DNA from: a virus
Strand: one strand, 5' to 3'
Length of the DNA stretch: 64,000 bases
IMG/VR virus record: IMGVR_UViG_3300007513_000007
Location: 32,001 to 96,000 of that record
The position numbers were made by a program, and so were the translations under genes. Under the pieces are notes generated by a model. The model worked only from the letters and a program-made list of their open reading frames with translations. It was not told the DNA's origin and made no database searches. Within the stretch, counting starts at the first letter, position 1; each line of letters begins with the position of its first letter. Positions 850 to 58,116 of the stretch are shown here, one piece after another.

Positions 850-2028
850 ATGGAAAACCCCTCCTCTAATCGCGTAGCGACTGCCTTTTTACGGAAGGCC
901 CGTCACAGCATGAAGATCAGGGGCATGAGTCCCATCGACATGCTGGGCCGGATACGAGACCTCTCCGATTTGATCAAAGGTGGTGCTGACCATCTGTGGG
1001 AGGGGCGCAACACCCCTGATCCCACGCCTGCCCAGGTGAAGGCTTGGAGACAAGAGCGTAAAGCTCTCCTGGAGTTGTTTGGTCAGTTCGAGTTGGGTGC
1101 AGTGCATCTGCATGACATCAAGGACTGGAAGATGTACCAGAAGATGAAGGTGGCCTATGGCGGTTATCCGGGCGGCCCCGGTCAGTACGGGGACGCAACC
1201 GAGGACCCAAGCATCTACCATGAAGAGGAGGTGGACCCCTGCGAGGAGAACCCCGAGTACATCGGCATGTCACTGGATGATGTAGTTGGGTGTGCCCCCG
1301 ATGCGGTCGATGATTGGATGGAGGCTGCCGAAGGCGTCATGGCAGGCTTGAAAAGGCTCGGGTTCAAGGTGCGCGAGGGCAAGGATTGGCACGAGGACGG
1401 TCAACTCAGGATGAGGATTTTCATCCAGGGGCCGCTCGGAAAAGCCGAGATCGACATCACAGGGAACATCGACCCCAACGGACAACTCAAGAGGGGCTGG
1501 GGTCTTTACGCTGGGATCGTGAGGGGTGCCGACTGGTGGGACCTCAAGCATCTCAAGCACGGTGAGATCGAGATGGACGGCGGCAACGTCAGGCGGTTCG
1601 TCAAGAAGGTGCTGGATGTCTGGGCTGACGGCGGCATGAACCGCACCCGGAGGGCTTCTTCTAAGGCCAGTGCCGAGAGGGTCGCTGCCGCTTTCTTGAA
1701 GCAAGGATCATGGGAGATTCACAAGGAGTGGCAGGCTGCGTATCGTTCAGGGATGGGCGACATGCAGAAAAGATGGACCGCCCTACTCAATAAAGCAGGG
1801 CGACAGTTCAAGAAGGACGACTGGAAGCTGGAGCCTCAAAGCTGGCTTGGCCACTACAACCACGGCTCAGATGGCGCTCGCATGGACGGGATGTTGTTTT
1901 TTGAGGATCTCCGCAACGAGGCACGAGGCACACGCGAGACCGAAGACTGGCTGGAAGCGAACCTTGGCCTCAGCTACAACCTGACGGGTCGCGGCTACGG
2001 CAAGTGGTCCTTGAGCCTTGAAGAATAA
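850..2028 (+). CDS. multi-module hypothetical protein with two RVA tags
   Basis: 392 aa ORF; SSNRVATAFLRKA at N-terminus and SAERVAAAFLKQG internally. Confidence 0.85.
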   Translation: MENPSSNRVATAFLRKARHSMKIRGMSPIDMLGRIRDLSDLIKGGADHLWEGRNTPDPTPAQVKAWRQERKALLELFGQFELGAVHLHDIKDWKMYQKMKVAYGGYPGGPGQYGDATEDPSIYHEEEVDPCEENPEYIGMSLDDVVGCAPDAVDDWMEAAEGVMAGLKRLGFKVREGKDWHEDGQLRMRIFIQGPLGKAEIDITGNIDPNGQLKRGWGLYAGIVRGADWWDLKHLKHGEIEMDGGNVRRFVKKVLDVWADGGMNRTRRASSKASAERVAAAFLKQGSWEIHKEWQAAYRSGMGDMQKRWTALLNKAGRQFKKDDWKLEPQSWLGHYNHGSDGARMDGMLFFEDLRNEARGTRETEDWLEANLGLSYNLTGRGYGKWSLSLEE

Positions 2029-2251
2029 GGGAGTTCAGAATGTCTGAAGCAGGAATGGTTGCATGTAAGATCGGGCTTCAAGCTCCCGTAGCCGCCCCCG
2101 GCTGAAATCAGTTGGGCGTAGCTATCGCCGCTATGGGCATCAAGATCGACAACGCTACGATTGCCCAGCATGTCTGGGACGGTATCAAGTCCGGTTACAC
2201 GGAAGTAGACAGCCTGAGTGAATACCTGTGCCGGGAAATGGGCGCGGACGG

Positions 2252-2536
2252 CTAACCCTCGACCATGTTCAGGAGCACTTGCTCCCCTACTACGTCCTCG
2301 ATGGTGTCTGCGATATGGCACGCGGCCTCATCCAAGATCGTATCGGGTGCATAGTGGGCACGCGGGGACGGGACCCACTGACTCTTGAACACAGTGACCC
2401 AAGCAGCCGTGTTCTCGTTGTACTTCTGAATCATCGTGCGGATTCGGTTCTTACGGGCCTCAACACAGCACCGCAACGGAAGCACTATCTCTACGTCTTT
2501 GACGAGGTACGAAGTCTCCACCCACTTCGACTTCAC
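2252..2536 (-). CDS. hypothetical protein
   Basis: 94 aa ORF, protein-like composition; start uncertain. Confidence 0.5.
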   Translation of the reverse strand: MKSKWVETSYLVKDVEIVLPLRCCVEARKNRIRTMIQKYNENTAAWVTVFKSQWVPSPRAHYAPDTILDEAACHIADTIEDVVGEQVLLNMVEG

Positions 2537-2641
2537 AGAGCAAATCCAAAAACTTGAGCGGCTGGCATATACACCTCGGGGAGTCAGCCCTTTTGAATAC
2601 GGTTTTCGCCGTTCAGAAAGACCCCCCTCTGTGGAGGCGCT

Positions 2642-3070
2642 TTATCTCCAGAGTTGAACCGTAGGGGGCTTGCCTTCGCCTCCCCAGGAAACCGACACAG
2701 CGATTCGGATGTAGCCTTTCCATGCTCGAATCTCCATTTCGTTGCCGACCATCCCTTCGTACCGATTCATTCCACCACGGCCCCATCCTTCCTTCTTCAG
2801 CTTCTTGATCTTGGCCAAGGCGCGGGCCATAGCATCCCACTCCTCCTTCACCCTGACCTCATGCGTGACGACCCTGGTCATGGACTCAAGCGTGTACTCG
2901 TGCCTGCCCGTTTGGCTGTCTACGCCCTGGTAGATGAAAGACCGTGTCCAGCCCTTTGCGGTCTTTTTCAAACCTGAAAGGATAGTCCTACGCTCCTCCG
3001 AACCTTTGGGGAGAGTAGAAGCGAGTCGAATGAGCTTCTTACGATCAGATCCGGTAAGGGTTTTAGACAT
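2642..3070 (-). CDS. hypothetical protein with N-terminal DRKKLIRLAS..PKGS.ERR.IL.GL tag
   Basis: 142 aa ORF; leader nearly identical to 3143..3433 but the body is unrelated. Confidence 0.85.
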   Translation of the reverse strand: MSKTLTGSDRKKLIRLASTLPKGSEERRTILSGLKKTAKGWTRSFIYQGVDSQTGRHEYTLESMTRVVTHEVRVKEEWDAMARALAKIKKLKKEGWGRGGMNRYEGMVGNEMEIRAWKGYIRIAVSVSWGGEGKPPTVQLWR

Positions 3071-3142
3071 AGGGGATTTCCTACAGGGTGTTTGTACTTG
3101 TGTCGGGGCAATAGGGAATCAACCAAGTTCGCGGAGCCATGC

Positions 3143-3433
3143 TTACTTACCAAACGCACCGCGAATGTCTCGGAAAGCGAGTTCCACAGCAGCTTCAGCC
3201 AGACGGTAAGCGTCTGGGCCGTAGACCCCATGCTTCTGCAAAGCAGGGTACATCACGTCGTACCATGCTTTCTTGGGTGACAGTCGCGCAGTCTTGTCGG
3301 TTTTTGGCTGAACCACACCCGAAGCCTTAGACAATCCAGCGAGGATAGCCTTACGCTCGGGGGAACCCTTCTCCATCGTGGAGGCGAGTCGAATGAGGGT
3401 TTTTCGATCTGAAGCGGTGAGGGTTTTAGACAT
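3143..3433 (-). CDS. hypothetical protein with N-terminal DRKTLIRLAS tag
   Basis: 96 aa ORF; duplicated 5-prime cassette shared with 2642..3070. Confidence 0.85.
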   Translation of the reverse strand: MSKTLTASDRKTLIRLASTMEKGSPERKAILAGLSKASGVVQPKTDKTARLSPKKAWYDVMYPALQKHGVYGPDAYRLAEAAVELAFRDIRGAFGK

Positions 3434-3488
3434 AGGGGATTTCCTATACGCAAGGGATTGGTTCTACCTTTGCTGGGCAATAGGGAAC

Positions 3489-3665
3489 CTACTGGTCAGT
3501 CTTGGGACGGGCGTCCTGCTCACTCTTGTTGAAAAGGTCGCCCTGTTCCCCCAAGCGTTGGAAAGCAGCAGAGGGATCTCGGGTCTGTGGCTTCTTGGGT
3601 GCCGTTCGCACCCGTTTCGTCACCACCTCAATCTCTTTGCCTTGTCTGTCCTTGATGATCTTCAT
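3489..3665 (-). CDS. small basic hypothetical protein (58 aa)
   Basis: Manual translation MKIIKDRQGKEIEVVTKRVR...; GAGG upstream; below ORF-track cutoff. Confidence 0.55.
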   Translation of the reverse strand: MKIIKDRQGKEIEVVTKRVRTAPKKPQTRDPSAAFQRLGEQGDLFNKSEQDARPKTDQ

Positions 3666-15813: not shown

Positions 15814-15990
15814 ATGGACACTTACAAATCCCGCATCATCAAATGCCCTGGCCGCAGATGCTTCTGCTTTGGCCCCGGCTACCCCTGCGACCGTGAATCC
15901 TCAAGCAAACGCAAGGCTGCCCGTCTTGCCCGTCGTCGCCTCAAAACCGACGACCGCAAAACCTTCCGACGCCACACCCTTCCTCGTTAG
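15814..15990 (+). CDS. small Cys/Arg-rich protein (58 aa)
   Basis: MDTYKSRIIKCPGRRCFC...KRKAARLARRRLK; directly after a class I motif. Confidence 0.6.
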   Translation: MDTYKSRIIKCPGRRCFCFGPGYPCDRESSSKRKAARLARRRLKTDDRKTFRRHTLPR

Positions 15991-16027
15991 GGTTCCTATC
16001 CGCACCTACGGGTATAGGAGAACCCTC

Positions 16028-16483
16028 ATGAAGACACCCTCACCTATCCCTTCGCTCCCAACCGACAGGAAGGGGTTGATTCGCATGGCTTCGGAACTCC
16101 CCCTCGGTGACCGGAAGCGTAGAGCTATCCTGTCTGGGTTGAAGGCTGGCGCTGGGAAGACCGCCAAGATTGACGACGAGGATCTAAACAAGGTTCTCAT
16201 TGTGATGAAGGCTCATGTAAGCAGACGCCCTGACAAGGGTTGGCGGATGATGGCCGCGCCCGAAGACGCGGCTTCTGGGCCAGCCGATTCTGGCATTGTC
16301 GCTGACTGGCTGGGCTGGGGTGGCGGTGCAGCTACAACTGCTTTGAGGGTGCTTCAGAGACAAGGGCTTGTGAACTCTGTAAAGGGCCGCACACGCAAGA
16401 ATCGGTGGTATTTGACCCCCAAGGGTTTGCAAGCGGCGGTGAGGGCGAAGACCACAACGAAACTGGCCCAGAAGAAGCCCTGA
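16028..16483 (+). CDS. winged-helix-like protein with DRKGLIRMAS..RRAILSGL tag
   Basis: start ATG 16028 after AGGAG; TALRVLQRQGLV..WYLTPKG; class II variant CGTT-N7-CTAT at 15985-15999. Confidence 0.8.
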   Translation: MKTPSPIPSLPTDRKGLIRMASELPLGDRKRRAILSGLKAGAGKTAKIDDEDLNKVLIVMKAHVSRRPDKGWRMMAAPEDAASGPADSGIVADWLGWGGGAATTALRVLQRQGLVNSVKGRTRKNRWYLTPKGLQAAVRAKTTTKLAQKKP

Positions 16484-16490
16484 TTAGAAG

Positions 16491-17582
16491 CTACCCCCAG
16501 ATTTCGTTGAGTGCTTTTTCGTGTTCTGTGGGCAGTATTCCCAGGGCACTCAAGGCCACTGCTTCAGCGAAGTGTTCTTCATCGCTCTTTGAAGAGTACG
16601 GCGTCGGGAAGTTCTTGAGCGCCTTGTTCTGCTTCAGCAGAAACTTGTGGATGTCCCGTACTGGGTGACTTTGCAGGCCGTGGTTTGGGGTGTCGAAGAA
16701 GTATTGCCCGTGTTGGATCATCTTCACCACAGGGCGTTCCTTCATGCCTCGGATCTTCAGGGGGATCTCGTCCCCGACTCCGGGCATGTCGAAATCCGGG
16801 TCCTTGTTCCCGACGTTCCAGTGGTGGTGGTGCCAAGTACGCTTGGCACCCTTGTCAGCAAACTTCTTCCAGTATCGGTGGGCGAGTTCGTGGACCAGGG
16901 CGTGGACCTCATCCATCCCCGTGGCCTTACCCCGGCGAAGGTACATGCTGTCATCCCCCGGCATGTACCAAGCGGCATGGTGCGCTTGGCTGAGTCGGGA
17001 CACGATATGAAGGTCGCCGTATAGGGTCTTGGCGAAGCCTGGAACCGGGTTCTTCTTGGCGAGCTTCTCTGCTCTCTGGATAGCTTTCTTCAGTGCCTCA
17101 AGCTCTGCACCCTCGGCGTTCACCGTGTTGTGGATCCTGAACCTACCCAGCTTGAACAACTCGTCCGTGCCTTCTTGCTTCTCGGGCCAGTTGTAGGCTC
17201 CTCTAATCAGAAGGTCGATCCGCTTTTCGTTCTTGGCCCACCACTTGTAGACATCCTTGGGCATCCGACGGCTGTTGTTGAACAGCCGGTACGCCATTTC
17301 CATGCCCTTTGAATCACGGCGGGGAACACTCCTGGAGGACAGCAAGCCATCCGAAATCCGTGAGCCTTTGTTGATCAAAGCAACCCAGGGACGGTTGGCC
17401 CAGACCCGGACGGTGCGGCTATCACCTGAAAGACCACGATCCTTCCCGTCCTGGACGGCCTTGATGAAATCCTGGCGTGCGATCTCGAACGCATCCAGGT
17501 TGTTCATGATGTCCTGTTCCGTTCCTGCCGCCTGCTTCAAGGAGAAGCGCAGAGCTACTCTGGCCGAATCAGCTTTCATCAT
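16491..17582 (-). CDS. zincin-like metallopeptidase with RVA tag
   Basis: LVHELAH plus C-terminal PTPYSSKSDEEHFAE; N-terminal DSARVALRFSLKQA. Confidence 0.8.
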   Translation of the reverse strand: MMKADSARVALRFSLKQAAGTEQDIMNNLDAFEIARQDFIKAVQDGKDRGLSGDSRTVRVWANRPWVALINKGSRISDGLLSSRSVPRRDSKGMEMAYRLFNNSRRMPKDVYKWWAKNEKRIDLLIRGAYNWPEKQEGTDELFKLGRFRIHNTVNAEGAELEALKKAIQRAEKLAKKNPVPGFAKTLYGDLHIVSRLSQAHHAAWYMPGDDSMYLRRGKATGMDEVHALVHELAHRYWKKFADKGAKRTWHHHHWNVGNKDPDFDMPGVGDEIPLKIRGMKERPVVKMIQHGQYFFDTPNHGLQSHPVRDIHKFLLKQNKALKNFPTPYSSKSDEEHFAEAVALSALGILPTEHEKALNEIWG

Positions 17583-18208
17583 GGGTCCAGCAACGTGACT
17601 ATGCACCTTCCCTCGAAGGTGGTTCCGATGGGGAAGTTGACTCCATCATTCGGGTTTTGGATGAAGAACACGAACTGGGCAGGCGTAGGCCCAGAGGCCG
17701 CGACGTATGTAACGGAGCAACCCGCGTCGATAGGGCCGATCCCCGTGGAGGCTGAAGCGCCTCCGATTTTGTCGATGTTCCCAGACTGGAGGGTTTCATC
17801 GGTGGCGAAGACGTACTCTCCGATTTCACTGTTGCTGGTGCCTTGGGCCTTCATGTGGACCGTGATTCGACCGCCTACGAAGTCTGAAGCAGTGTAGACG
17901 AGCACCTCGATGTTTTCTTGGACCGCTGTGGAGGTCGTATGGGTGAACTGCTCGCAGAACACCCTGCCGCAGGAGTACACCGAAGCCAACTGATGGACTT
18001 CTGCCCACTGGCGTTCCGTGCCTGGGGTCCCGTCCCCGCTGTGCCCCAGGTTCCTGGTGAGGTTCGCGTCTGGAGTGAGGTCCGATGCGATTGATGCTGT
18101 GACCTCAAGGGTGTCTGTTGCCTCATCGTTCCCGATGGTCATGCTTCCAGGAACATCCAGGTGGTCGATGTCGATCCCGATAGCGTCAGTGATCAATACT
18201 CTGGGCAT
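17579..18208 (-). CDS. hypothetical protein, beta-rich, possibly structural
   Basis: 209 aa ORF translationally coupled on both sides. Confidence 0.8.
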   Translation of the reverse strand: MPRVLITDAIGIDIDHLDVPGSMTIGNDEATDTLEVTASIASDLTPDANLTRNLGHSGDGTPGTERQWAEVHQLASVYSCGRVFCEQFTHTTSTAVQENIEVLVYTASDFVGGRITVHMKAQGTSNSEIGEYVFATDETLQSGNIDKIGGASASTGIGPIDAGCSVTYVAASGPTPAQFVFFIQNPNDGVNFPIGTTFEGRCIVTLLDP

Positions 18209-18825
18209 CAGGACCTCATAGACCAGCGTAGAGCCACGCTGGCAGCATTAGGGGTGGAAGCCCAGCGCCGAGTCGGATGTCTGCGCCGCCCCCGTGGCTT
18301 TATGGGATTGCGCGGGGGCTTCCTCCGACCGGATTTATCCGTCCAGGAACTCCCGGAGTTGGCGAAGTTGTCTCGCATGTATTTCTCGGCGGCTTCTTCC
18401 GACATGAATGGCCCGTAAGAGGACATGTCCCCTTCGATCTGGTAGCCATCCTCGTCTTCTTGGTAGTCCTCATTATCGACGTACCACTTGCCGTCTGACG
18501 CCTTGTAGAACTCCCGCTCGGTGTTGGTGCTTCCCTTTTTCTTTTTCTTGATCTTGCCCTTCCAGTAGGACTTCGCATCGGAGCGGGCATCAGGGGATTC
18601 TTTCTTGTTCTTCTGACGCCAACCGGGCATCTGCCAGTCAGCAAGGCCACCGCAAAAGGCACCAGGGTTGCTGATGTTGTCGGTCATCTTCTCGATGCAG
18701 TCCCAGACCTTGTGTTCAGGCGTGCCTTTACCCAGCGTCTTCCAGAACTTCTTGACGGACTTATCCGTCCATCCCGGAGGGAGGTTCTTCCATTTCTTGG
18801 CTACGCGGGCAGCGGATGGCTTCAT
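18208..18825 (-). CDS. hypothetical protein with RVA-like tags at both ends
   Basis: start re-picked at ATG 18825: MKPSAARVAKKW...NAASVALRWSMRS. Confidence 0.8.
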   Translation of the reverse strand: MKPSAARVAKKWKNLPPGWTDKSVKKFWKTLGKGTPEHKVWDCIEKMTDNISNPGAFCGGLADWQMPGWRQKNKKESPDARSDAKSYWKGKIKKKKKGSTNTEREFYKASDGKWYVDNEDYQEDEDGYQIEGDMSSYGPFMSEEAAEKYMRDNFANSGSSWTDKSGRRKPPRNPIKPRGRRRHPTRRWASTPNAASVALRWSMRS

Positions 18826-18850
18826 GGGATTCCTTCCCCCTTCCGAAAGG

Positions 18851-18865
18851 ATAGGAACCTTACCG
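18851..18865 (-). promoter_or_regulatory. class II motif CGGT-N7-CTAT
   Basis: CGGTAAGGTTCCTAT upstream of 18825. Confidence 0.6.
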
Positions 18866-18882
18866 TGCCCCAAATAAGAGAG

Positions 18883-19652: not shown

Positions 19653-20054
19653 CTACGCGGTCACACTACCAAGGGAACCCCCCCTCAAAACCTTTTCTGC
19701 ATTTTTCAACGCACGCCACGCAGGACGGCCCTTCTTCTCGATCCAACGGTTAGCGACAGCAATAACATGCTTGCACGCTCCAGCACGCCCGTGGTCGGGG
19801 CACGAGCAGCTATGCCGACGTACCGCGTTCCGGTCGATGCTGATGGTCACCATGTAGTCCTGACGGCCCCTACAGAGAGCACGGAGGCCATGCTGACCAT
19901 CCCTGGCCCAAACGATATGGACACCGCTTGCACGGTACACGCGGCCAGTCTCGGACACCTTGATGAGTGCCCGCAGCCCACGCCCACGGTCTTCGACCTG
20001 GGAGATAGCCCACAAGAGGGACTCGGCTGCGCTCTTGGTGATGGTTCCTTTCAT
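19653..20054 (-). CDS. SWIM zinc-finger protein
   Basis: HSCSCPDH....CKHVIAV (CxC..CxH); start re-picked at ATG 20054. Confidence 0.85.
   Translation of the reverse strand: MKGTITKSAAESLLWAISQVEDRGRGLRALIKVSETGRVYRASGVHIVWARDGQHGLRALCRGRQDYMVTISIDRNAVRRHSCSCPDHGRAGACKHVIAVANRWIEKKGRPAWRALKNAEKVLRGGSLGSVTA
19654..19681 (-). promoter_or_regulatory. class I promoter motif
   Basis: exact match; -10 box overlaps the SWIM stop codon. Confidence 0.8.
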
Positions 20055-20073
20055 CGGGACCTCCTGCTCTCCT

Positions 20074-20592
20074 TTACGCGGAAGGAGGGGTATCAGAACC
20101 CCCCTCCGCAGCTTCCGCAGCAATCTTTTTCAGGTACTCGGCACTCGCCTTGGATTCAACGGCTGCATTAGCAACTACGGTGGGGTGATCCTCCCCCATG
20201 TCCTCTGTCACGAACCCTGCATGGACGAACCTCTCGCCATCAGAGTTCACGAGGTGGCTGTCATCGTCACAGTGAAAGTGTGCGTACCAGATGGTCGGGC
20301 CATCCCCTTCCTCAGTACTCCTCGTAGCCTCGAAGTAGGTGGGCTTCTTCAACCCCTCGTACCACTCCTTGACGCCTTCCTCGTTGAAGTGCTCCAGGTA
20401 GAACTCCTGGGGTGCTGCCACGCTCTCATGCAGGGTTCCAGGGAGGGTTTCCATGGTGTGGAAGAAGAACCTCATCACGGAGTCAAGGTTCTGCCACCAT
20501 GTCGTCAGTTCTTCGGCGGTGAAGCCTGTTTCCCAGACCCAATGCCGATAGCCGTATTCTTCTTGGACGTAGACCGTAATGAGGTCGCTCAA
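20074..20592 (-). CDS. acidic hypothetical protein
   Basis: start re-picked at TTG 20592, overlapping the HNH stop (TTGA). Confidence 0.7.
   Translation of the reverse strand: MSDLITVYVQEEYGYRHWVWETGFTAEELTTWWQNLDSVMRFFFHTMETLPGTLHESVAAPQEFYLEHFNEEGVKEWYEGLKKPTYFEATRSTEEGDGPTIWYAHFHCDDDSHLVNSDGERFVHAGFVTEDMGEDHPTVVANAAVESKASAEYLKKIAAEAAEGGSDTPPSA
20075..20102 (-). promoter_or_regulatory. class I promoter motif (GGGGTTCT variant)
   Basis: N16 spacing, upstream of 20054. Confidence 0.7.
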
Positions 20593-21104
20593 GGCAGTCT
20601 CCTTGGCTTCGAGAAGTTGGGGCGCTCGACCTCCCGGTATCGCTTTGCCCGACGATCCTTCTGACACGTTCGGCATTTGCGACGGCCCGTAGAAGGACTC
20701 TTCCAGGTGTTCTCCTCCGTGAACTCGTGCCCGTACTTGCAGTGCGTCTTGGCTGCGTTCGTCACAGCGAAGCTCGTACCCCTTCGGGTGTTCTCCTGTG
20801 TGGTGACTGGTTCCATATGGTCGAGATTGCAGCACAGGCGGTTTCTACAAAGGTGGTCGATTTCCAGTGTGGGATCAATGGGACCTCTTTCGAGAACATA
20901 GAGGACCCGATGTGGGGGCAGGTATCGCTTCTTACCGTCTACACAGACGGCGATGTTGCCGTAGCCTTTAGAGGTCTTGGCTCCTGCCCATTCGAGGCAC
21001 CCCGAAGCAGGCCGTTCTACGCACCGGCTTCGTATTCTTTTGGCGTACTTCTCTGGGATTCCAGCATAGTTGGATGCCTTGACCTTTCGCACCGCCCCCT
21101 TCAA
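20589..21104 (-). CDS. HNH endonuclease (homing type)
   Basis: CLEWAGA..KGYG..HRV..IDHLCRNRLCCNLDHMEPVT..EN..THCKYGHEF; start uncertain. Confidence 0.9.
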   Translation of the reverse strand: MKGAVRKVKASNYAGIPEKYAKRIRSRCVERPASGCLEWAGAKTSKGYGNIAVCVDGKKRYLPPHRVLYVLERGPIDPTLEIDHLCRNRLCCNLDHMEPVTTQENTRRGTSFAVTNAAKTHCKYGHEFTEENTWKSPSTGRRKCRTCQKDRRAKRYREVERPNFSKPRRLP

Positions 21105-21361
21105 GGCTTCTCCTGGGCCTTCTTGGCCTCGTACTCTTCCTTAGCCAGCCCTCCGAGCGCACCGATGCTCCCCAGGAAGTCCTGGAGGTTCTCATCCCCC
21201 CGCTTGGAGCCTGTGAAATAGGCAGGCCCTCCAATGCGGACAGCCTTGTGACCGCCCTTGAAGATGCCTTTCTTCATGGATTCGCGGATCTCTTCGTCAG
21301 TCTCTCCCTCGTAAGGGGAAGTGCCGTCTGCGAATCTACCGTCAGGTCCAAGTACCGCCAT
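21101..21361 (-). CDS. hypothetical protein
   Basis: start ATG 21361 overlaps the DUF5131 stop (TAATG). Confidence 0.65.
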   Translation of the reverse strand: MAVLGPDGRFADGTSPYEGETDEEIRESMKKGIFKGGHKAVRIGGPAYFTGSKRGDENLQDFLGSIGALGGLAKEEYEAKKAQEKP

Positions 21362-22242
21362 TAGCTTGCAGCCCTCTCTTCTTGCCTCTGCTTGTTGATG
21401 ATGAACCCGCCCAAGACCGAAGGAGTCTTGAGAGGAGGAAGCTCGTCCCAGGTACGTCCGTCCAACGTCCGTCCTGCTGCCTTCTTTCCTACACGGGTTC
21501 CCTGGTCGCCGTACTCCCCCCACTGCTTGAAGTGGAAAGGAATAGCCTCCTGCACGCTCTGATCGCGCAGTCCACGCACCCACTTGACCTCACTCGGACG
21601 AGCCTTGTGACCGCTTTCGCCGCCCACGATGACCCACTCCAGCTTCTTGGCCCAGCTTTTGAGGATGCGAACATTGCCGAGCAGCGGTTCACAACTCAAG
21701 TAGCGAACATGAGCGTTGACTTTGATGAGGTGAGGAACCCTTTCCTTTGCCCACTTCTGGTCCTCTACGGTGACGCCGACCCAAACCTGGGGAGGCAACC
21801 CCTTCGGGAAATAGTGTTTCTGCCACGCCAGGAGCCTCTCTGGCCGCTTTGTGAGGAACATGACTACCTGGGGAGCCTTGCACCCTTTGTCAAGGCTCCT
21901 GACCTCATCAGCGAGCAGTTCCAGTTCTTCCCCCGTGATGTCCAGGCTTTCATGGAAGAGGTCCGTCATCGAACCATAGAAAGTCCGACGAGGCTTCAAA
22001 GCGTTTCGGATCTCCGCGAAGTTCCTACGCCGAATGTTGAGGTCACACTGGACCTTCCCCGTCCACGCAGGCTTCTTCATACTGCCGTTCGTAACCCCGT
22101 CGTATCGAGCATGGTTCCCCATGTTCGCGATGCGAACGGAAAGGGTCATCGCATAGCAGTAAGTACATGCAGGAGAGTTCTTGGAACACCCCGCCTGATC
22201 ATTCATCGTATGAGTAGCCCATTCGATTTTGGTTCGTGCCAT
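21361..22242 (-). CDS. phage Gp37/Gp68-like (DUF5131) protein
   Basis: TKIEWA..GCSKNSPACTYCYA, SMTDLFH, LTKRPE, GVTVEDQ, LSCEPLLG, WVIVGGESG, FKQWG, GRTLDGRTWDELP. Confidence 0.92.
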   Translation of the reverse strand: MARTKIEWATHTMNDQAGCSKNSPACTYCYAMTLSVRIANMGNHARYDGVTNGSMKKPAWTGKVQCDLNIRRRNFAEIRNALKPRRTFYGSMTDLFHESLDITGEELELLADEVRSLDKGCKAPQVVMFLTKRPERLLAWQKHYFPKGLPPQVWVGVTVEDQKWAKERVPHLIKVNAHVRYLSCEPLLGNVRILKSWAKKLEWVIVGGESGHKARPSEVKWVRGLRDQSVQEAIPFHFKQWGEYGDQGTRVGKKAAGRTLDGRTWDELPPLKTPSVLGGFIINKQRQEERAAS

Positions 22243-24038: not shown

Positions 24039-24045
24039 ATCAGTT

Positions 24046-24204: not shown

Positions 24205-24390
24205 ATCGAAAATCTCAAAACACACAGCACACAACACACAGCACACAACAAAGGAGGGCCGCCATGACCAGACGTCACCGCCGCCGCAAAATGCGGTAGG
24301 GAGTGAGACCCACTCCCTGGCTCCGATATACGCCCCGGCCCAGTGCCAGCCCAGCGTGAGGGGATGCTCGCGCCAACACCCAATCAAAGG

Positions 24391-24816: not shown

Positions 24817-24834
24817 GTAGCGCCTGGAGCTATG

Positions 24835-24863: not shown

Positions 24864-24869
24864 ACTTCA

Positions 24870-41116: not shown

Positions 41117-42748
41117 ATGTCCTCGAACACCAGGAATCTGATGAAGATTGGCATTATCTCAAAGAAGCCGCACGCAAAGAACCATGCCCAAGCTCTAAAG
41201 CGCGAGGGTCATGACGTAGTTTTGTTGGACGGTGACCCCAAAAGAATACCTTCCTCCATCGACTTGGTGATCTGCCGCACCGCTTCGTGTAGCCACGGTG
41301 CGAGTAACGTAGCTCTGGAGTGGCAACGCTCTGGAGGAGGTTTCCTGGTGATGGAGAACGGACTGTCCGGGGCTTTGAGAGCCATTCGGCAATACATCGA
41401 ACCCAAGAAGAGCAAGAAGAAGAAGGAAGAGGCCAAGGTCGCTGCTCCTGCTCCCACCCCTACTCCTGTGGAACCGGAGTCCGCACCTATGAAGAAGATC
41501 ACAGGCAGCGTTTTGGATGAGGCCGTCACTATGGTTGGCGAGGGCACTTCTCTCACCAAGGTTGCCAAGCATTTCAATGTTGCTCGCAGCACCCTCACCC
41601 GTGCTCTGATCGAAGCAGGAGGATGGCCCCAAACAAGCCAGCCTCTTTCGCCTGAACCGCAACCTCCCGCAGAAGCAGACGTACTGGAAGCAGGACCTCC
41701 CCCTTCAGAGTCCGAAGTCGAGGAGCTTATCGAGACATGGGCTGTGCTGGTTGTAGAAACCCGCATAAACGACAACTTCGAGCAACGCCTGGAAGTGATG
41801 AAGGGCTTGATGGAGGTCGAGGTCGAGGACTGGCGGCTTCGTAGTGCTTTGATGGCCGCAGCAGGCGAGGATGTCCCGCTGCTCCACGAACCGGAAGAAG
41901 ACCTCGAAACCGAGACGGTCACGCACACCGAACCTGAACCCGAACCTGAACCTGTTGAGGTCGAGGACCCCTCCACACCGGACTACGGTGACGACGAAGG
42001 TGCCTTCGTGTTGCCTCCGATCCCCGTACCTGAACCCCACTTCTTGAAGGCGTGTCCTGTAGACCGCATCCTCAACGATCTTCCTATTGCCCGCAGACTG
42101 GCCGCGTTGGTGTCTAATGAGGATAAGGAGAAGTTCCGAAAGGCGCTCCTGTCCCATGACCGGAACCCCAAGAACGCTGGGGCGTGGATACCTCGGGATT
42201 TGAAGAAGGCCGATGCACCTTTTGCTTCTGCCAAGGGCAAGCCCCTGGTCTTCGCGTTGCTGGTGTGGCTCTTGCTCGATCCCGAAGATGAACCTTCGGG
42301 CAGGGCCTTCCTCCACGCCTACAAGGAGTTGACCAAGAAGGGAACCGACAGTCGTTTCCCCAAGGCTGCTGCTTGGGCCTTGGGCCGCACTCTGGGGGAA
42401 GCCCTTCGTGGTAGGGGTGGTGGTAAGAAGCCGTCCTCTGATAGTCTTTCGGGAACTGAAAAGACCCACTTCCTCCAAGCCCTCGCAAAGAAGAAGGACA
42501 TGCTCGCTGAAAAGGATGCCACCATCCAGAGCCTCCAACAGGAACTCGAACAGGTTCGCGAAGAAGAGGACCGTCTGCGACATGAACTGGAGCTTGCTCT
42601 CCGTTCGCGTTCACAGCAGCCCCCTGCAATCGGAGCCAGCCCTGCTGCCCCTGTTCCGGCCCCTTCGACGGGCTTGACCTTGGACCTCACCGTGGATGAC
42701 TTGGTTCGCGCAGGCTTCCAGGTCCACGTCACGAAGCCCTGTGGGTAA
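41117..42748 (+). CDS. multidomain protein: DUF2325-like N-terminus, HTH, coiled coil
   Basis: IPSSIDLVICRTASCSHG; LTKVAKHFNVARSTLTRAL; C-terminal coil. Confidence 0.8.
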   Translation: MSSNTRNLMKIGIISKKPHAKNHAQALKREGHDVVLLDGDPKRIPSSIDLVICRTASCSHGASNVALEWQRSGGGFLVMENGLSGALRAIRQYIEPKKSKKKKEEAKVAAPAPTPTPVEPESAPMKKITGSVLDEAVTMVGEGTSLTKVAKHFNVARSTLTRALIEAGGWPQTSQPLSPEPQPPAEADVLEAGPPPSESEVEELIETWAVLVVETRINDNFEQRLEVMKGLMEVEVEDWRLRSALMAAAGEDVPLLHEPEEDLETETVTHTEPEPEPEPVEVEDPSTPDYGDDEGAFVLPPIPVPEPHFLKACPVDRILNDLPIARRLAALVSNEDKEKFRKALLSHDRNPKNAGAWIPRDLKKADAPFASAKGKPLVFALLVWLLLDPEDEPSGRAFLHAYKELTKKGTDSRFPKAAAWALGRTLGEALRGRGGGKKPSSDSLSGTEKTHFLQALAKKKDMLAEKDATIQSLQQELEQVREEEDRLRHELELALRSRSQQPPAIGASPAAPVPAPSTGLTLDLTVDDLVRAGFQVHVTKPCG

Positions 42749-42771
42749 GGTCTGACGGTAGGAGGTGCTCA

Positions 42772-43185
42772 ATGGCACAAGGTCGCGTAAAGAGGGTCGC
42801 TAACATCGACCGGAAGTTCGGTGCTGACTCCGAATACCTGTTCCTCAAGGTGCAGGCTCACGGTCGAGGGGAACCCGGCGAAGAATACTGGCTGGTCACC
42901 GACGAAGAGGCCGAGAAGTTCAGCCACCGCGCTACGGAGAACCCTGAAGACATCCCTGACAGCCACTTGGGGATTTTCATGCGCGTAGCGAACGCCACCC
43001 CCAAGCCCGCAGCCAACGACTGGTACGTTTCGGTCAAGGTGAAAATAGCCAACGCGGACAGAGTCCGGGAAGAGGTTTGGTTCCTTACCGAGTTCGACCT
43101 GGAGCGGGTTCGAGGCCGTGTTGAAAAGAACGCAGAAGACATCGAGGCCAACCGTGAAGGGTGGCTTGCCGACCTGTTTGATTGA
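42772..43185 (+). CDS. hypothetical protein with internal tandem duplication
   Basis: EEYWLVTDEE..RATENPEDI versus EEVWFLTEFD..RVEKNAEDI; RBS AGGAGG. Confidence 0.85.
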   Translation: MAQGRVKRVANIDRKFGADSEYLFLKVQAHGRGEPGEEYWLVTDEEAEKFSHRATENPEDIPDSHLGIFMRVANATPKPAANDWYVSVKVKIANADRVREEVWFLTEFDLERVRGRVEKNAEDIEANREGWLADLFD

Positions 43186-43442
43186 TGTTTCGAGCAGTTG
43201 CTTTCTTGAGTGTGTGTCTCTTGAGCGGGTGTTTTGCGCTCATGCACGAAGTTGACGCCATGAACGCCGTCAACCTTTACCGAAACCAGGGGGTTACCCC
43301 TGCGTGTGGCTTCTTCCACGAAGGGATGCAGTTCCCTGACGGGTCTGTGGTGGATCAGGTGGACCAGAACGTAGTTGTAGTGATCATCCCCGACCCCAGA
43401 TCAGCCGAGGGAGAGGATGACCACGCTATCCCTTGCCGGTAG
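43182..43442 (+). CDS. putative lipoprotein
   Basis: hydrophobic leader ending LLSGC. Confidence 0.6.
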   Translation: MMFRAVAFLSVCLLSGCFALMHEVDAMNAVNLYRNQGVTPACGFFHEGMQFPDGSVVDQVDQNVVVVIIPDPRSAEGEDDHAIPCR

Positions 43443-43465
43443 CTTGCTGATACGAGAGGGTAGCC

Positions 43466-44110
43466 ATGAAGCATGACGCCGCCAGGGTTGCCCTTCGCCA
43501 CAGCCTGAAGGCCACGGCCATCGGCCCCTATGAGGATTCCATCATCGACGGCCTCAAGGTCACGCAGGTGGAGACAGACAACCGCCGCTCAAATGCCTCG
43601 ATTCGGGGGAACCGCCTCCTGGTGAAGTGGGGGCAGGACAGCCGGATGTTCAACAAGGCTACCCAGCTTGCGAAGTGGGTCCGTTGGGCTAACCGCAAGC
43701 TGGGCCAGAAGAAGGAACGAGTCCAGCAGAAGAAGGAGTGGACGCGCACGAAAGTGGACGGCTACTCCGTCTACGACCTGGAAGGCAAGGAACAGGTCGC
43801 CGCCATGATGGCGAAGATCCAACGTGACGTAAAACCCTTGCTTCGGGAGTTTGGCCTCCGTTTCCAGACCATCAAAGAGTCTGTGGCCGAGGGGTCGCTG
43901 GGATTCAACCGTGGTGCGGGCCGTATCATCGCCCTCAATGTTCGTCAGAAGCGGAACCCCATGAAGCTCCGCAAGTACAGCGCGATCATGCGGACCATGA
44001 TCCATGAGCTTGCCCACATTCGGCATATGAACCACGGGCCGAACTTCAAGATGTTCGAGCAAGAGCTTCTGGGCGTTGCCCGTAAGACGGGCGTGTACTC
44101 ACCGGGCTGA
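43466..44110 (+). CDS. WLM/Wss1- or YgjP-like zinc metalloprotease with RVA tag
   Basis: SLGFNRGAGRIIALNVR..TMIHELAHIRHMNHGPNF; N-terminal DAARVALRHSLKATA. Confidence 0.85.
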   Translation: MKHDAARVALRHSLKATAIGPYEDSIIDGLKVTQVETDNRRSNASIRGNRLLVKWGQDSRMFNKATQLAKWVRWANRKLGQKKERVQQKKEWTRTKVDGYSVYDLEGKEQVAAMMAKIQRDVKPLLREFGLRFQTIKESVAEGSLGFNRGAGRIIALNVRQKRNPMKLRKYSAIMRTMIHELAHIRHMNHGPNFKMFEQELLGVARKTGVYSPG

Positions 44111-46490: not shown

Positions 46491-47336
46491 TTATAGGCTG
46501 CCTTGGATTCGATAGGCTGCTGCCACCTGTGTGGCGCACGCCAACCGTACCGGACCAAACTGTGCCTCGTACCAGTCGAGGTGGCCATCGGGATCCGCTT
46601 TATCCAGGTGGCTCGGAACACGCCGCAAGAATGCGAATACGACCGCGTAAATAACTTCGGTGATTGGAAGGGTTCCGAGGATCGCCCATTCGGGGTCCCC
46701 AGTAGCCCAGATGAACACTGCTGGAAGCAGCGTGTGCTCCACAATCTCGGCCAAAGCAAACACAACCCCCAGCTTCCACCCGTGCTTTTTCACCATAGAA
46801 ATCATAGCTTTGAGGGTGTGGACCGGGCTGATAGCTTTCCAGGCGCTCGCCATCACCTTGACGACAACTTCTTCAGTTACGCGGCCTCGGAACTCTTTGA
46901 TGGCGTCCCGGACAACCTTGGCCTTGACCCCACTTGGCAGAGTTCTCCCGTCCCAGTCGTCGCCCTGCTCGAACCCCCACCGATACCCTTCGAGGAAATC
47001 CTCTGTCTCACGGCTGTACTTGGCCTCGTCGGGGTAGTGCCCTCGAACGGCCTCAAACCTTCCTGCTTGGGCACCCTCCAGGAACTCGTCCACGTCGGCA
47101 TCCACTTCAACCTCTCCCAGTTTCTTTACGAAGATGGGGGCTAAATCACGGATGATGTTGTCTACGGCGTCGTCAACAGGGCCTTGGACGAACTCGCGGT
47201 GATGGTCGTAGATGACTTTGAAGGGTTGGGCAATCCATTTCACCCATTCCCGCAACGCCGCTTCTCGCGCCATCTCGGCTTCGAGGTAGCGTTGGGCTAC
47301 CCGCTGGGCACTGGCTTGCTTCTTCAACATCGACAT
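46491..47336 (-). CDS. membrane-associated hypothetical protein with RVA tags
   Basis: KQASAQRVAQRYLEA at N-terminus, CATQVAAAY at C-terminus; hydrophobic C-terminal helices. Confidence 0.85.
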   Translation of the reverse strand: MSMLKKQASAQRVAQRYLEAEMAREAALREWVKWIAQPFKVIYDHHREFVQGPVDDAVDNIIRDLAPIFVKKLGEVEVDADVDEFLEGAQAGRFEAVRGHYPDEAKYSRETEDFLEGYRWGFEQGDDWDGRTLPSGVKAKVVRDAIKEFRGRVTEEVVVKVMASAWKAISPVHTLKAMISMVKKHGWKLGVVFALAEIVEHTLLPAVFIWATGDPEWAILGTLPITEVIYAVVFAFLRRVPSHLDKADPDGHLDWYEAQFGPVRLACATQVAAAYRIQGSL

Positions 47337-47345
47337 TCGCTCCAG

Positions 47346-47360
47346 ATAGACATTTCACCG
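47346..47360 (-). promoter_or_regulatory. class II motif CGGT-N7-CTAT
   Basis: CGGTGAAATGTCTAT 10 nt upstream of 47336. Confidence 0.6.
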
Positions 47361-47551
47361 GACTCGACTAAATACGTCGAAAATCGGGTGCTGGGGCAGG
47401 AATCAAAGAAAGGGGGGTGCTTTTATTGCGCCAGCGTTGTAGAGCATAAGCGGTGGTCGTAAGGTGAGGACCCCCTAAAGGGTCCCCACTATACGAAACC
47501 TACCGCTTATTTTGACAACTAAAACCGCTGACGCAGAGGGAAAGGCCGACG

Positions 47552-50187: not shown

Positions 50188-51408
50188 CTACCTGTACCTC
50201 TTGAGCTTCTCGTACACGTTGTTGGCATAGCCTCTGGGCTTGCTCAACTGGTACATCGTCTTCAGGTTCAAGTCGTAGAGGGGTTGCTGCTTCGGTGGGA
50301 TCTCCTCGAAGGAATCCCACATTTCCTTGAGGTGGATGGTCGCGTTGACTGCGTTGCCCACTGCCCGATCTGCTTCAAAAGCAGCCGTCTGGAAATCCTG
50401 GAGGCTGTACACGCGCTTGGCGTACCGTCCCTTGAGGCGTTCCAGTTCCGCTTGTGCGTCCCGCTGCGAGAGCCGCCACTTGGTAGTGAGGCTGTGCAGG
50501 ATCTTTCGGTCGGGCATCCCCTTTTGGAGCATCCGCTGTAGCGCCTTTTCGTACTGGCGCTTGTCCTTGCCTACCCCAATGTCTTCCCATGCGTCTGGAG
50601 GCCGTGCTCCAGGACGAGTTCCTGGATCATGACGGTGCTTGGCACCACCTGGGCGACGGTGCATGGGAGGCGCTTGTCTACGCTTGGCCGTCTTGACTTG
50701 GTACGCAGCAGCTACCCGTTCGGCTGAAGCGACACGGGGCACAGGGCCGTCAAAGAGACCTATGTCCTTTGTAAAGAAGACCAGGAAAGGCCCTTGCTCC
50801 TCTGCATACCGAGCAACCTCCCGTACAGGAATATCGTCGTCCGGGTCCAGGTTCATCTGCTTCCAGTAGATGGAGGCAAAACTCTCGGCCTCATCAAGCA
50901 GGTCATCAGCATCCCAGCTTTGCCACTTCCGGTGGTTCCGCATAGCGTGCCTCTTCCACTCCCGGCCAAGGTCCTCGTCCATCCTACGGGCCGCCCGCTT
51001 GTCACGCTTGCGCTTCTGGCGGTTTCGGGTGTCCGACATCCACTCGTCGTTCAGCTTGCGGGTGAGGCCGCATCTCTTGAGGGCCTCCAGAGAATCTTCC
51101 ATCTCATTGGAGCGAAGCACCCGAATCAGTTGTCCCAGTAGTTCCGGGGCGTTCTCCTTGTTGAAGGCTTGCTTCTCGACATGAGAGGCCGTGCTTCGAC
51201 GGAGCATCTCCTGTTGGCGCTCATGTTGTGGGTTGTCTTCACCGCGTGGCACTGCTGCTCCCTTGGGGCTTCCGTAGTCAGGCTGCATCGAGAGAGAACC
51301 TCGGGAAACAAAGTACCAGTCCGGGTATTTTTCCGGGTTTGGCTCCTCGGTATCCGCAGCCCAGCGCCGCATCTGATCGTGGATTATTTCTCGGGGGGTA
51401 CGCGCCAT
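50188..51408 (-). CDS. multi-module hypothetical protein with internal RVA tag
   Basis: start ATG 51408 after GGAGAG; RVASAERVAAAYQVKTA; class II variant CGAT-N7-CTAT at 51432-51446. Confidence 0.85.
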   Translation of the reverse strand: MARTPREIIHDQMRRWAADTEEPNPEKYPDWYFVSRGSLSMQPDYGSPKGAAVPRGEDNPQHERQQEMLRRSTASHVEKQAFNKENAPELLGQLIRVLRSNEMEDSLEALKRCGLTRKLNDEWMSDTRNRQKRKRDKRAARRMDEDLGREWKRHAMRNHRKWQSWDADDLLDEAESFASIYWKQMNLDPDDDIPVREVARYAEEQGPFLVFFTKDIGLFDGPVPRVASAERVAAAYQVKTAKRRQAPPMHRRPGGAKHRHDPGTRPGARPPDAWEDIGVGKDKRQYEKALQRMLQKGMPDRKILHSLTTKWRLSQRDAQAELERLKGRYAKRVYSLQDFQTAAFEADRAVGNAVNATIHLKEMWDSFEEIPPKQQPLYDLNLKTMYQLSKPRGYANNVYEKLKRYR

Positions 51409-51469
51409 GTTCTCTCCGCACCTCGAATCGAATAGGCACCTTATCGGTATTGTGGGCCAAGGAGGGCCT

Positions 51470-56407: not shown

Positions 56408-56422
56408 ATAGGGGGCCTACCG
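56408..56422 (-). promoter_or_regulatory. class II motif CGGT-N7-CTAT
   Basis: CGGTAGGCCCCCTAT upstream of 56383. Confidence 0.55.
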
Positions 56423-56430
56423 CAGAAGGA

Positions 56431-56961
56431 TCAGCGGGAGGGCAGCTTTATGTTGGAGATGGAGACCACCGATTCGGTCACTTCATCCCGCAGCCTGGAA
56501 GGAGGAACCCCCTCTTCTGTGGGGCCTTCTATATGGTCGTTGAGCCTCTTGATGATCTCGTGCTTCTTGCGGCCCAGGTCAGAAATGTCCACCCCCGCAA
56601 CAGCAGCCTGCTCTCTCAACGAATCCAAAGAGGGGAGCGTTTTGGGCTTGGTTGGGGTGGCGGCCTCTTCTTCGTAGTCGATACGCAGGACCACGCTCCC
56701 CTCCGACGACACCTGCAAAGAGGGAAAGCCCCTTCGCTTCTGGTCCTTCATCAAGGTCTGGGCCAGCAGCTTGGCTACTGCACTATCCGCAAGGAACGCA
56801 TTTGCCTCGGCCATAGCCGCTACGGCCTCTCGAAGACGCTCCCCGATAGTGGTGGTGACCTCCCCCTCCGACCCCACGACCGGGAAGTTCAAGACTTCCT
56901 GGGCAAGTGAAGGGTCGATGGGAAGCTCGATGGGCTTCAGTTTCCTGGTCACGGAAGGCAC
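56431..56961 (-). CDS. hypothetical protein
   Basis: 176 aa ORF, RBS GGAGG. Confidence 0.8.
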   Translation of the reverse strand: MPSVTRKLKPIELPIDPSLAQEVLNFPVVGSEGEVTTTIGERLREAVAAMAEANAFLADSAVAKLLAQTLMKDQKRRGFPSLQVSSEGSVVLRIDYEEEAATPTKPKTLPSLDSLREQAAVAGVDISDLGRKKHEIIKRLNDHIEGPTEEGVPPSRLRDEVTESVVSISNIKLPSR

Positions 56962-57013
56962 CTCCAGGTAAGAGATACCCGCCAGAGAGAAACTTTGACC
57001 CCCCTCCCCCTAA

Positions 57014-57223
57014 CTATCGGCCAATCTTTACCTTCAGGGGGTCGAAACCAGCCCTCATTAGAGCTTCTTCTAACCTTTCACTCTGGCCAGGGTCCTTCTT
57101 TTTCACCCGGCGTGCGTACAACCATAACAGGTCCGACGCTTTTTCGTCCTTCAGAGAGATAGCCCAGAATCCAGCAGGGCACCAATCATGGCTCTGTAAG
57201 GCTTCCGGCTCGGGTTTGGTCAT
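57014..57223 (-). CDS. small hypothetical protein
   Basis: 69 aa, ATGA coupling to upstream gene. Confidence 0.7.
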   Translation of the reverse strand: MTKPEPEALQSHDWCPAGFWAISLKDEKASDLLWLYARRVKKKDPGQSERLEEALMRAGFDPLKVKIGR

Positions 57224-58116
57224 TCCGTGTCCTCTTCCTCACTACCCGGAAGCGTGGAGCCTTCTCCCCCCTCTGGTTCGACCCAACGGGGTTCATGGTC
57301 CCCTTCATCCGTCACCTGCTCTGGGAGCATCGCGTACCTTTCGGCCACCCTCTTCGCGGTGTGGTAGTGCTTGCGATCCTCGATGATCTGCTTGTGCTTC
57401 CGCTTTGCTTCACCAATGGTTTTGGCAAGGATCGCCTTCCCTCGGTCATCAACCCCCACAAAGAAAAGCAGTCTGCCACGGCGATCCTGGATGCCGTCCC
57501 CCAAGCCGATGATGGGCCGGTCGTGGGGGCGTGCTTCACCGAAGAACACGTCCACTGGAATCAGGCCCTGACGCTTGAGCATGGCGGCTGACCCCATCTG
57601 CATGGGCGGCCCTTTTCGGGCAGCCACACGAACAGCGGCAGAAGCCTCTACGAGTCCCTTACGCAAAACACGGGCGGCTTGCCCGATCTCATGCTCCGGG
57701 CGACCATCTTGATAGGCTGTCCACAGTTCCCGTACCTGTGCCGGAAGCGGTGAGAGCAACCCCAACATCTCCCCTTCTGTGTCGAGGCGCACTGCTTCTT
57801 CAAGCAGTGCCTCCGTGGTGAGCAGATGTTTACGGATGCAGTCAGGACAGTGCTTCTGGACATGACCCAGATGGTCCTCCAGCAAGAGCAGTTCCTTGGC
57901 GGCTTCCCGCAGGTTGTAGAGGGGGTCCATCAAAGGAAGCAGTGCTGCGTACCGGGCAGCGACACGTTGGGCTGATTTGAACTTGTCTGGATTCATGCTC
58001 TTGTAGATTCCCATGATGTAGGCGTAGTTCTCGGCCTTCCCCTGCTCTTTCGCACGGGCCTTGGCCTTCTGCCACTTCTTCTCATCGGCTGGGGTCTTGA
58101 CGACGTTGGTAGGCAT
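57220..58116 (-). CDS. multi-module protein with RVA tags between modules
   Basis: MPTNVVKTPADEKKW..; KSAQRVAARY; LLPLMDPLYNLRE..LLEDHL..HCPDCIRKH; TAKRVAERY. Confidence 0.88.
   Translation of the reverse strand: MPTNVVKTPADEKKWQKAKARAKEQGKAENYAYIMGIYKSMNPDKFKSAQRVAARYAALLPLMDPLYNLREAAKELLLLEDHLGHVQKHCPDCIRKHLLTTEALLEEAVRLDTEGEMLGLLSPLPAQVRELWTAYQDGRPEHEIGQAARVLRKGLVEASAAVRVAARKGPPMQMGSAAMLKRQGLIPVDVFFGEARPHDRPIIGLGDGIQDRRGRLLFFVGVDDRGKAILAKTIGEAKRKHKQIIEDRKHYHTAKRVAERYAMLPEQVTDEGDHEPRWVEPEGGEGSTLPGSEEEDTE

Follow-up and report, generated by a model that had tools for sequence, protein, structure and literature searches.

The stretch analysed here, referred to as the window, comprises 64,000 nt (positions 32,001 to 96,000) of the 180,576-bp virus contig IMGVR_UViG_3300007513_000007 (58% G+C), and seven of its otherwise unrelated proteins carry, in 11 copies altogether, the same short peptide tag, x-S-A-x-R-[VIL]-A-x-[RA]-[YFWH]-L. 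The preferred reading, which is given roughly an even chance, is that this peptide is a portable docking tag, most likely for the loading of proteins into the phage head. The docking reading is based on the recurrence of the tag, selection at the level of the peptide, its position at module junctions, its interchange with a second type of leader and its head-module context in a relative; from these observations we infer the further steps of a shared partner, head loading, injection and processing. The contig is listed as linear in the IMG/VR record and reaches a CheckV completeness of only 40%; it therefore represents a partial huge-phage genome, whose full length is perhaps about 450 kb.

All tag peptides quoted in the original prediction, which had proposed a capsid cargo-loading code, were recovered by translation from the genes concerned, and five more copies are located upstream of the window, with the codon of the arginine position at contig 14925 (a lysine in this copy), 25053, 28489, 30204 and 31495. 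In the called proteome of the contig (173 genes, obtained by simple gene calling based on codon usage), the pattern RVAxx[FYWH] occurs 15 times, whereas 300 shuffles contain it 2.3 times on average and never more than 7 times. The suggested profile scan of the genome and related phages gave the same picture: a weight matrix generated from other phages only yields 11 matches of at least 14 bits on the contig versus 0.27 in shuffles. The matrix matches all lie inside genes spanning contig 13-90 kb, and the best score (25.3 bits) belongs to the protein encoded at 46491..47336. Together with the shuffle comparison for 150 representatives of a tagged family described below, these values rule out chance or composition as the origin of the tag. 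The bodies of the tagged proteins are indeed unrelated, as had been claimed: with the tags masked, no mutual similarity is detected (best E 0.08), which also rules out hidden homology between them. Scans of the contig with matrix and pattern detected no tags in the DNA polymerase, the helicases, the ribonucleotide reductase, the baseplate and tail proteins or other large proteins, and an equally frequent occurrence in metabolic proteins, which had been named as a sign against a loading code, was therefore not seen. The tag is restricted to a polyvalent or accessory set of proteins, a distribution that fits a short linear docking motif.

Selection acts on the peptide rather than on the underlying DNA. 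Across the 16 copies, the identity at codon positions 1 and 2 is 0.55, while position 3 reaches 0.30 compared to 0.28 expected from the third-position composition of the genome, and the arginine of the tag is encoded by CGG, CGT, CGC, AGG or AGA. As the synonymous sites are random, a DNA or RNA repeat that is merely translated in frame is ruled out. The consensus derived from 127 non-redundant copies reads x-S-A-x-R-[V 0.70/I/L]-A-[A/S]-[R 0.50]-[Y/F/W/H]-[L 0.39]-x-[K/R/A]-[K/A]. A Tat signal would require S/T-R-R-x-F-L-K, an adjoining h-region, an AxA site and an exclusively N-terminal position; the tag has a single arginine, is not followed by an h-region and is mostly internal, so that neither pattern nor position fits and this identity is ruled out.

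For the tagged zincin-like protein encoded at 16491..17582, numerous homologues exist in metagenomes. When 28 of these are aligned, an RVA-type helix is found directly before a conserved AAG[TS]E.DI motif in most sequences and a longer, hairpin-type leader in several. A scan of IMG/VR with this alignment resulted in 75 loci, which are located on contigs of up to 536 kb with a G+C content of 0.30-0.65 and whose open reading frames (ORFs) contain many tags, often several per protein. In a profile search of 1.84 billion representatives, the zincin family comprises 1,239 clusters at E ≤ 0.001 with members of up to 3,524 amino acids (aa). Its top 150 representatives carry 89 tags, compared to about 1 in shuffles, and nearly every member of the AAGT-anchored subfamily presents an RVA- or hairpin-type leader directly before the domain. 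In the giant proteins of these relatives, among both the 75 loci and the 150 representatives, the tag acts as a separator of enzyme modules: proteins of 2,100-3,100 aa with 4-6 tags combine InPase, a PolyA_pol-type nucleotidyltransferase head, topoisomerase IB, RNA ligase, carboxypeptidase-like and zincin modules, and at three loci (L008, L013 and L024) proteins of 2,837-3,122 aa contain InPase, the PolyA_pol head, topoisomerase IB and RNA ligase together with M99-like and zincin modules. Iyer et al. (2017; PMC5512222) described polyvalent proteins of this kind in phages and conjugative elements, with the zincin as a hub domain, and predicted their packaging and injection as well as their processing by zincin-like peptidases. 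The features by which these proteins were described are found here as well, namely disparate domains in one chain (in the relatives), a zincin hub and a position next to portal or head genes. The main text of PMC5512222 describes the domains and no recurring inter-domain peptide, and the word 'linker' is absent from it.

Flanking genes were annotated in one of these relatives, L024, on a 132-kb contig. The gene order is large terminase, portal, nucleotidyltransferase, two unknown genes, a 2,837-aa polyprotein with six tags, a 255-aa protein, a 212-aa protein and the head-maturation protease (phrog_18299), which is followed by one more ORF; portal and polyprotein are separated by a gap of ~3.4 kb with three genes. 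The idea of tagged polyproteins thus finds support in the relatives, where the tag punctuates such chains and, in L024, the chain lies between portal and head-maturation protease. The 212-aa protein (L024:17188-17823) belongs to a family that consists of an SH3-like domain, a Gly/Pro linker, a tag of the form RVAxxY[VL]KKALYWA and a four-Cys Zn-ribbon. In L024 and L011, the two loci in which its neighbours were examined, its gene immediately precedes that of the head-maturation protease, and the family is present at seven further loci. The domain composition and position of this small head-module protein make it a candidate core protein or tag partner. On the contig under study, large terminase and portal precede the tagged genes, which begin after the portal, and the portal proteins of these phages are about 60% identical. 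The first tagged gene after the portal (contig 23859-25802, corresponding to window -8141..-6198; 647 aa) lies ~2 kb downstream of the portal gene and starts with a Peptidase_C39-like module (E 5.5e-12) that is 61-73% identical to the first module of the relatives' polyproteins. The tagged proteins of the contig contain one to three modules each. Modules of the proteins at 18208..18825 and 57220..58140 recur in relatives within polyproteins, fused to the zincin or adjoining the portal gene; for 57220..58140, it is the module right after the first tag that occurs both next to portal genes and in zincin fusions.

The tag is not confined to protein N-termini. Among the 127 copies, 77 are internal, 33-41 are N-terminal (5-8 residues past the start codon) and 9 are C-terminal (at most 12 residues from the stop), and the 89 tags of the 150 zincin representatives are divided into 62 internal, 18 N-terminal and 9 C-terminal copies. 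A tag that functions as an N-terminal leader was therefore not borne out, with about 60% of the copies internal, about 30% N-terminal and about 7% at the extreme C-terminus. An AlphaFold2 (AF2) model based on the zincin alignment has a mean predicted local distance difference test (pLDDT) score of 89, whereas its tag-bearing residues 1-18 are helical with a pLDDT of 39 and hence detached from the zincin fold. In the model of the protein encoded at 850..2028, which is poor (mean pLDDT 52.7) and was used solely for the order of linkers and modules, both tags are likewise helical, score below 50 and lie outside the better-predicted modules.

The second, hairpin-type leader comprises ~28 residues with the sequence SDRKxLIRLASxLPKGSxERRxILxGL and is present on four otherwise unrelated small proteins of the contig, three times at the N-terminus and once at the C-terminus. 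Two families include homologues in which it replaces the RVA tag. In homologues of the protein at 850..2028, the modules are reshuffled and the type of tag is swapped at the junction: the C-terminal module is preceded by an RVA tag here, by the hairpin DRKSLIRLASALPKGSEERRAILSGL in P0055 and by a third variant, IREALGF, in P0057 and P0058, while the middle module is followed by either an RVA tag or a hairpin, depending on the phage, with a different module behind each. As the same junction accepts either type, selection appears to favour the presence of a leader and no particular linker. Even at E ≤ 1, neither the RVA tag nor the hairpin leader is spanned by a curated Pfam or PHROG model.

Under the docking reading, an amphipathic helix of ~10-12 residues (S-A-x-R-[V/I/L]-A-x-[R/A]-[Y/F/W/H]-L-x-K/R), displayed on a flexible linker at the start, end or joint of a module, would mark the modules of the polyvalent set of this clade. 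As a docking motif, it would bring every tagged module to one common partner, most probably a component of the assembling head such as the core, the scaffold, a portal-proximal protein or the inner capsid surface, and the modules would enter the capsid as cargo, to be delivered along with the DNA. The set is encoded as one giant polyprotein in some relatives, located in the head-gene cluster where this was annotated, and as separate, separately tagged genes in this phage, which would be expressed together with the head and tail genes; polyproteins may be cleaved close to the tags by the proteases of the set (zincin-like, WLM, C39-like). A head-assembly partner is considered most likely because of the head-module position in the relative, a promoter-like motif in common with portal and tail genes and the independent prediction of packaging. 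A broader proposal, that the RVA helix and its hairpin variant serve a large clade of huge phages as their general cargo address, read by a single conserved prohead receptor for delivery with the DNA, is put forward more tentatively and appears somewhat doubtful at present.

The promoter-like motif in question, termed class II (CGGT-N8-CCTAT(C)), has 36 sites of at least 10 bits on the contig, of which ~26 are intergenic. It is found directly upstream of tagged genes or operons at window 850, 18825, 47336, 51408 and 58856 and at contig 23859 and 29487, directly before all three hairpin-leader genes of the window and, outside the window, before the portal operon (contig 18984, the top-scoring site) and genes of the tail and baseplate half. 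A class I motif, GGGGGTTCC-N15-CCGTA[G/A/T]AG, has 33 sites on the contig, mostly before small genes and also before ORF-free stretches. Examples are located at window 7810(+), 8322(+), 9728(+), 11193(+), 19680(-) and 27729(+), and the motif is reminiscent of ECF-sigma promoters.

A number of findings weigh against head loading. The promoter classes are sequence motifs and timing is derived from these motifs alone. The association itself is incomplete: tagged genes had been described as lying behind class II and not class I motifs, which holds for five genes or operons of the window and fails for the operon at 41117-44110, which includes the WLM gene and has a class-I-like site in place of class II, and for the tagged gene at contig 29487, where a class I site accompanies a weak class II site. 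On the contig, at its ~40% completeness, a head-maturation protease was not found and a capsid gene was not recognisable. A whole-genome census of the tag, carried out for three complete genomes, adds further points. The closest cultured phages by portal are Tunturiibacter phage Tunturi_5 (38%) and Bacillus phage G (26%), and both are free of tags, with 2 matches versus about 1.3 expected and 1 match versus about 1 expected, respectively. As they carry the portal and a homologue of the relatives' head protease, the head machinery works without tags; zincin and C39 module were both not found in these two genomes, which fits a protease-centred role of the tag equally well. When the phage collection was searched for the zincin, the SH3-Zn-ribbon protein and the C39 module, no cultured phage came up; the uncultured LR745208.1 was the only match, except that the zincin search also detected the enrichment-culture virus Rctr197k. 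With 485,034 bp, LR745208.1 is the closest complete genome in this collection and contains the portal (65% identity), the zincin, the C39 module, the SH3-Zn-ribbon protein and the head protease. It carries 24 tags, compared to 2-4 in shuffles, but only a few of them lie in its head module at 400-407 kb, the others being spread across the genome. Tags, zincin and C39 module so behave as one accessory system on top of a shared head machinery, and two layouts exist, with modules either concatenated in the head module or dispersed as single genes, the latter being the layout of the contig studied here.

Among the alternatives to docking, a pure processing signal survives best, although it is judged unlikely. 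In this case, the helix would be recognised by a protease of the set (zincin-like, C39-like or WLM) or by the head protease, which would cut polyproteins into modules, and terminal copies on single-module proteins would be remnants of split genes or mark places where the protein is trimmed or activated. The position of tags at the module joints of polyproteins, the zincin as hub and proposed processor (PMC5512222) and the three protease modules within the tagged set speak for this explanation, as does the pattern across four genomes, two of which (this contig, LR745208.1) possess tags, zincin and C39 module while the other two (phage G, Tunturi_5) have none of the three. The sequences next to the tag give a mixed answer. 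The claim that the element is bounded by K/R-x-A/G holds as a tendency: [KR]xA is found up to 8 residues past the tag aromatic in 29% of the tags versus 10% of control positions, an enrichment of ~3-fold that favours processing and may reflect continuation of a Lys/Ala-rich helix, and [KR]xA[SADG] is found in 12% versus 4%. For [AGS]G within 12 residues past the tag, tags and controls do not differ (14% each), Gly-Gly is found in 2% versus 5%, and glutamate is not enriched past the tag and, if anything, depleted. Even though a C39-like module exists at contig 23859, a double-glycine leader for such a peptidase is ruled out by the missing Gly-Gly enrichment. A two-part form with a cut and a dock, [KR]-x-A-S followed by two residues and RVA, is not general: [KR]xA[ST]xx directly precedes 4 of the 16 copies on the contig and 4% of the 77 internal copies in relatives. 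No position past the tag is conserved among the 127 copies, and the absence of a residue pattern at fixed distance that could mark a scissile bond counts against processing. The sequences thus offer no support for a fixed cleavage site in the tag itself or for a T4-style N-terminal tag with a fixed cut, and the combined N-terminal tag and K-x-A cleavage code of the original prediction is not borne out. Terminal copies argue in the same direction, as they are kept over deep divergence and are replaced by the other leader type instead of being lost, and the copies at the extreme C-terminus (9/127, and 9/89 in the representatives) are placed where a cut would free nothing.

Slightly less probable is a handle that acts after injection, i.e. 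binding of the tag to a conserved host factor (an Hsp70-type chaperone, an unfoldase, RNA polymerase or the membrane) that would pull, refold or localise the module after delivery or after ordinary synthesis. A hydrophobic core with basic flanks, presented on a flexible linker once per module, would suit such a factor, and so would the dispersed tags of LR745208.1. The tag is also nearly unchanged across phages with a G+C content of 0.36-0.65, which therefore probably infect different hosts, and a conserved host partner would account for this. However, the portals of these phages are also about 60% identical, so that the conservation of the tag is accounted for just as well by a conserved phage partner, and the R-V-A-x-x-aromatic signature is stricter than generic chaperone-binding motifs. 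An assembly tag unrelated to the virion, whose helices would bind each other or a phage hub and rebuild a multi-enzyme complex in the cell like the docking domains of split polyketide synthases, is improbable. Terminal copies on consecutive genes would agree with it: three successive ORFs of locus L027 each have a tag at their end, and the C-terminal copy of 18208..18825 abuts the next gene, whose start overlaps the stop codon (TGATG). Many proteins carry a single tag, though, complementary pairs of tags were not seen, and one consensus for all copies provides no order of assembly. Finally, a functionless evolutionary joint, either a conserved linker at which modules shuffle or a repeated DNA element read in frame, is very improbable, since despite the reshuffling of tag-flanking modules between phages the random synonymous sites leave no DNA repeat for recombination and largely refute this idea at the DNA level, specific residues are conserved across the 1,239 family clusters and at protein termini, and purifying selection on the peptide implies a function.

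The docking tag resembles several known systems without matching any of them. In phage T4, the capsid targeting sequence (CTS) of the internal proteins IPI-III and Alt, which is removed by the gp21 prohead protease, is likewise a peptide of ~10 residues on unrelated proteins that are dispensable for building the shell; the tagged proteins of L024 lie in a portal-to-protease head module of similar layout, and the concept of an address plus maturation is shared. The T4 CTS is, however, strictly N-terminal and ends in the L/I-x-E site of the protease, while the tag is unrelated in sequence, mostly internal (77/127) and in 9/127 copies C-terminal, so that the T4 analogy fits as an address on diverse cargo and is not borne out as an N-terminal tag with a K-x-A cut. 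Cargo-loading peptides of encapsulins are the closest position-independent analogy, as they are short, attached through flexible linkers at either terminus and direct unrelated cargo into an HK97-fold shell; they differ in being terminal and not inter-domain and in their consensus, and binding of the tag to a capsid protein is a proposal. In phage P1, a short N-terminal stretch of DarB is sufficient for packaging into the head. Junction motifs of polymorphic toxins (VENN of CdiA; PxxxxDPxGL of Rhs proteins) also demarcate exchangeable modules, but they precede a single C-terminal cassette, have known roles in cleavage or translocation and are unrelated to the tag in sequence. With the polyvalent proteins (Iyer et al., 2017), the relatives share domain repertoire and architecture in one chain near portal genes, whereas the set of this phage is split into single genes, each with its own tag.

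Proteins that are carried in the head and injected can usually be known only from virion proteomics of cultured phages, and hardly any huge phages are in culture. A conserved, position-independent module tag would provide a handle on polyvalent cargo from sequence only and would explain why the polyvalent set can occur either in a single giant chain or split over many small genes. If the general cargo address proposed above were correct, sequence alone would reveal which proteins hundreds of uncultured phages inject, and evolution could recruit new effectors through the mere gain of ten residues at a terminus or a joint. The polyvalent-protein concept of 2017 would be extended by a common joint element, for which no account was found in the PMC5512222 main text or in the other literature searched on polyvalent proteins, capsid targeting sequences and jumbo-phage head proteomics.

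The positions of tagged genes, hairpin leaders, class II sites and landmark genes are compiled in Table 1.

Table 1. Tagged genes, leaders, class II sites and landmark genes. Positions are those of the window unless marked as contig positions.
Feature	Position	Strand	Remarks
Three-part mosaic protein, 392 aa	850..2028	+	Tags 862-888 SSNRVATAF (N-terminal) and 1669-1695 SAERVAAAF (internal, joins two modules)
Zincin-like (HELAH) metallopeptidase	16491..17582	-	N-terminal tag 17544-17570 DSARVALRF
Orphan basic protein	18208..18825	-	Tag 18790-18816 SAARVAKKW (N-terminal); degenerate copy 18223-18249 NAASVALRW (extreme C-terminus)
WLM-type metallopeptidase	43466..44110	+	PF08325, E 3.2e-16; N-terminal tag 43475-43501 DAARVALRH
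Two-hydrophobic-segment protein	46491..47336	-	Tag 47286-47312 SAQRVAQRY (N-terminal); degenerate C-terminal copy 46512-46538 CATQVAAAY
Orphan protein	50188..51408	-	Internal tag 50701-50727 SAERVAAAY, then basic Pro/Arg-rich linker
Orphan protein	57220..58140	-	Internal tags 57949-57975 SAQRVAARY and 57334-57360 TAKRVAERY
Hairpin-type leader (LIRLA...PKGSxERRxILxGL)	2960..3049	-	N-terminus of 2642..3070
Hairpin-type leader	3323-3412	-	N-terminus of 3143..3433
Hairpin-type leader	16061-16147	+	N-terminus of 16028..16483
Hairpin-type leader	Extreme C-terminus of contig 27009-27470	+	
Class II site	18846..18871	-	In front of the 18825 operon
Class II site	783-808	+	
Class II site	47341-47366	-	
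Class II site	51427-51452	-	
Class II site	58877-58902	-	
Class II site	3106-3131	-	
Class II site	3475-3500	-	
Class II site	15979-16004	+	
Large terminase	Contig 16717-18627		Homology/family searches
Portal	Contig 19898-21607		Homology/family searches
DNA polymerase A, DnaB-like helicase, SNF2 helicase	Contig ~98-107 kb		Homology/family searches
Ribonucleotide reductase, Dda-like helicase	Near contig start		Homology/family searches
Baseplate-J protein	Contig ~148-152 kb		Within long minus-strand operons of very large proteins

The cargo types named in the original prediction are largely recovered among these genes. Its two proteases correspond to the protein at 16491..17582, which has HExxH and a downstream glutamate and gives only weak matches to zincin folds (E above 0.01), and to the WLM domain protein (PF08325, E 3e-16), and its membrane protein is that at 46491..47336 with two hydrophobic stretches. 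One gene start requires correction, as position 58116 marks where the upstream neighbour ends and the tagged gene itself is 57220..58140. That neighbour, 58116-58856(-), and the gene 17579-18208(-) are paralogues (BLASTP E 2e-6 over ~57 N-terminal residues), one of which matches phrog_36222, a family of unknown function; both are operon-mates of tagged genes, one located downstream with a TGATG overlap and the other upstream. Additionally, the 9-mers CTGAAGCAG and CTGCTTCAG occur 34 times each on the contig, with both strands counted; in frame, they encode Leu-Lys-Gln and Leu-Leu-Gln, respectively, in preferred codons, and their abundance may reflect codon usage and not a site.

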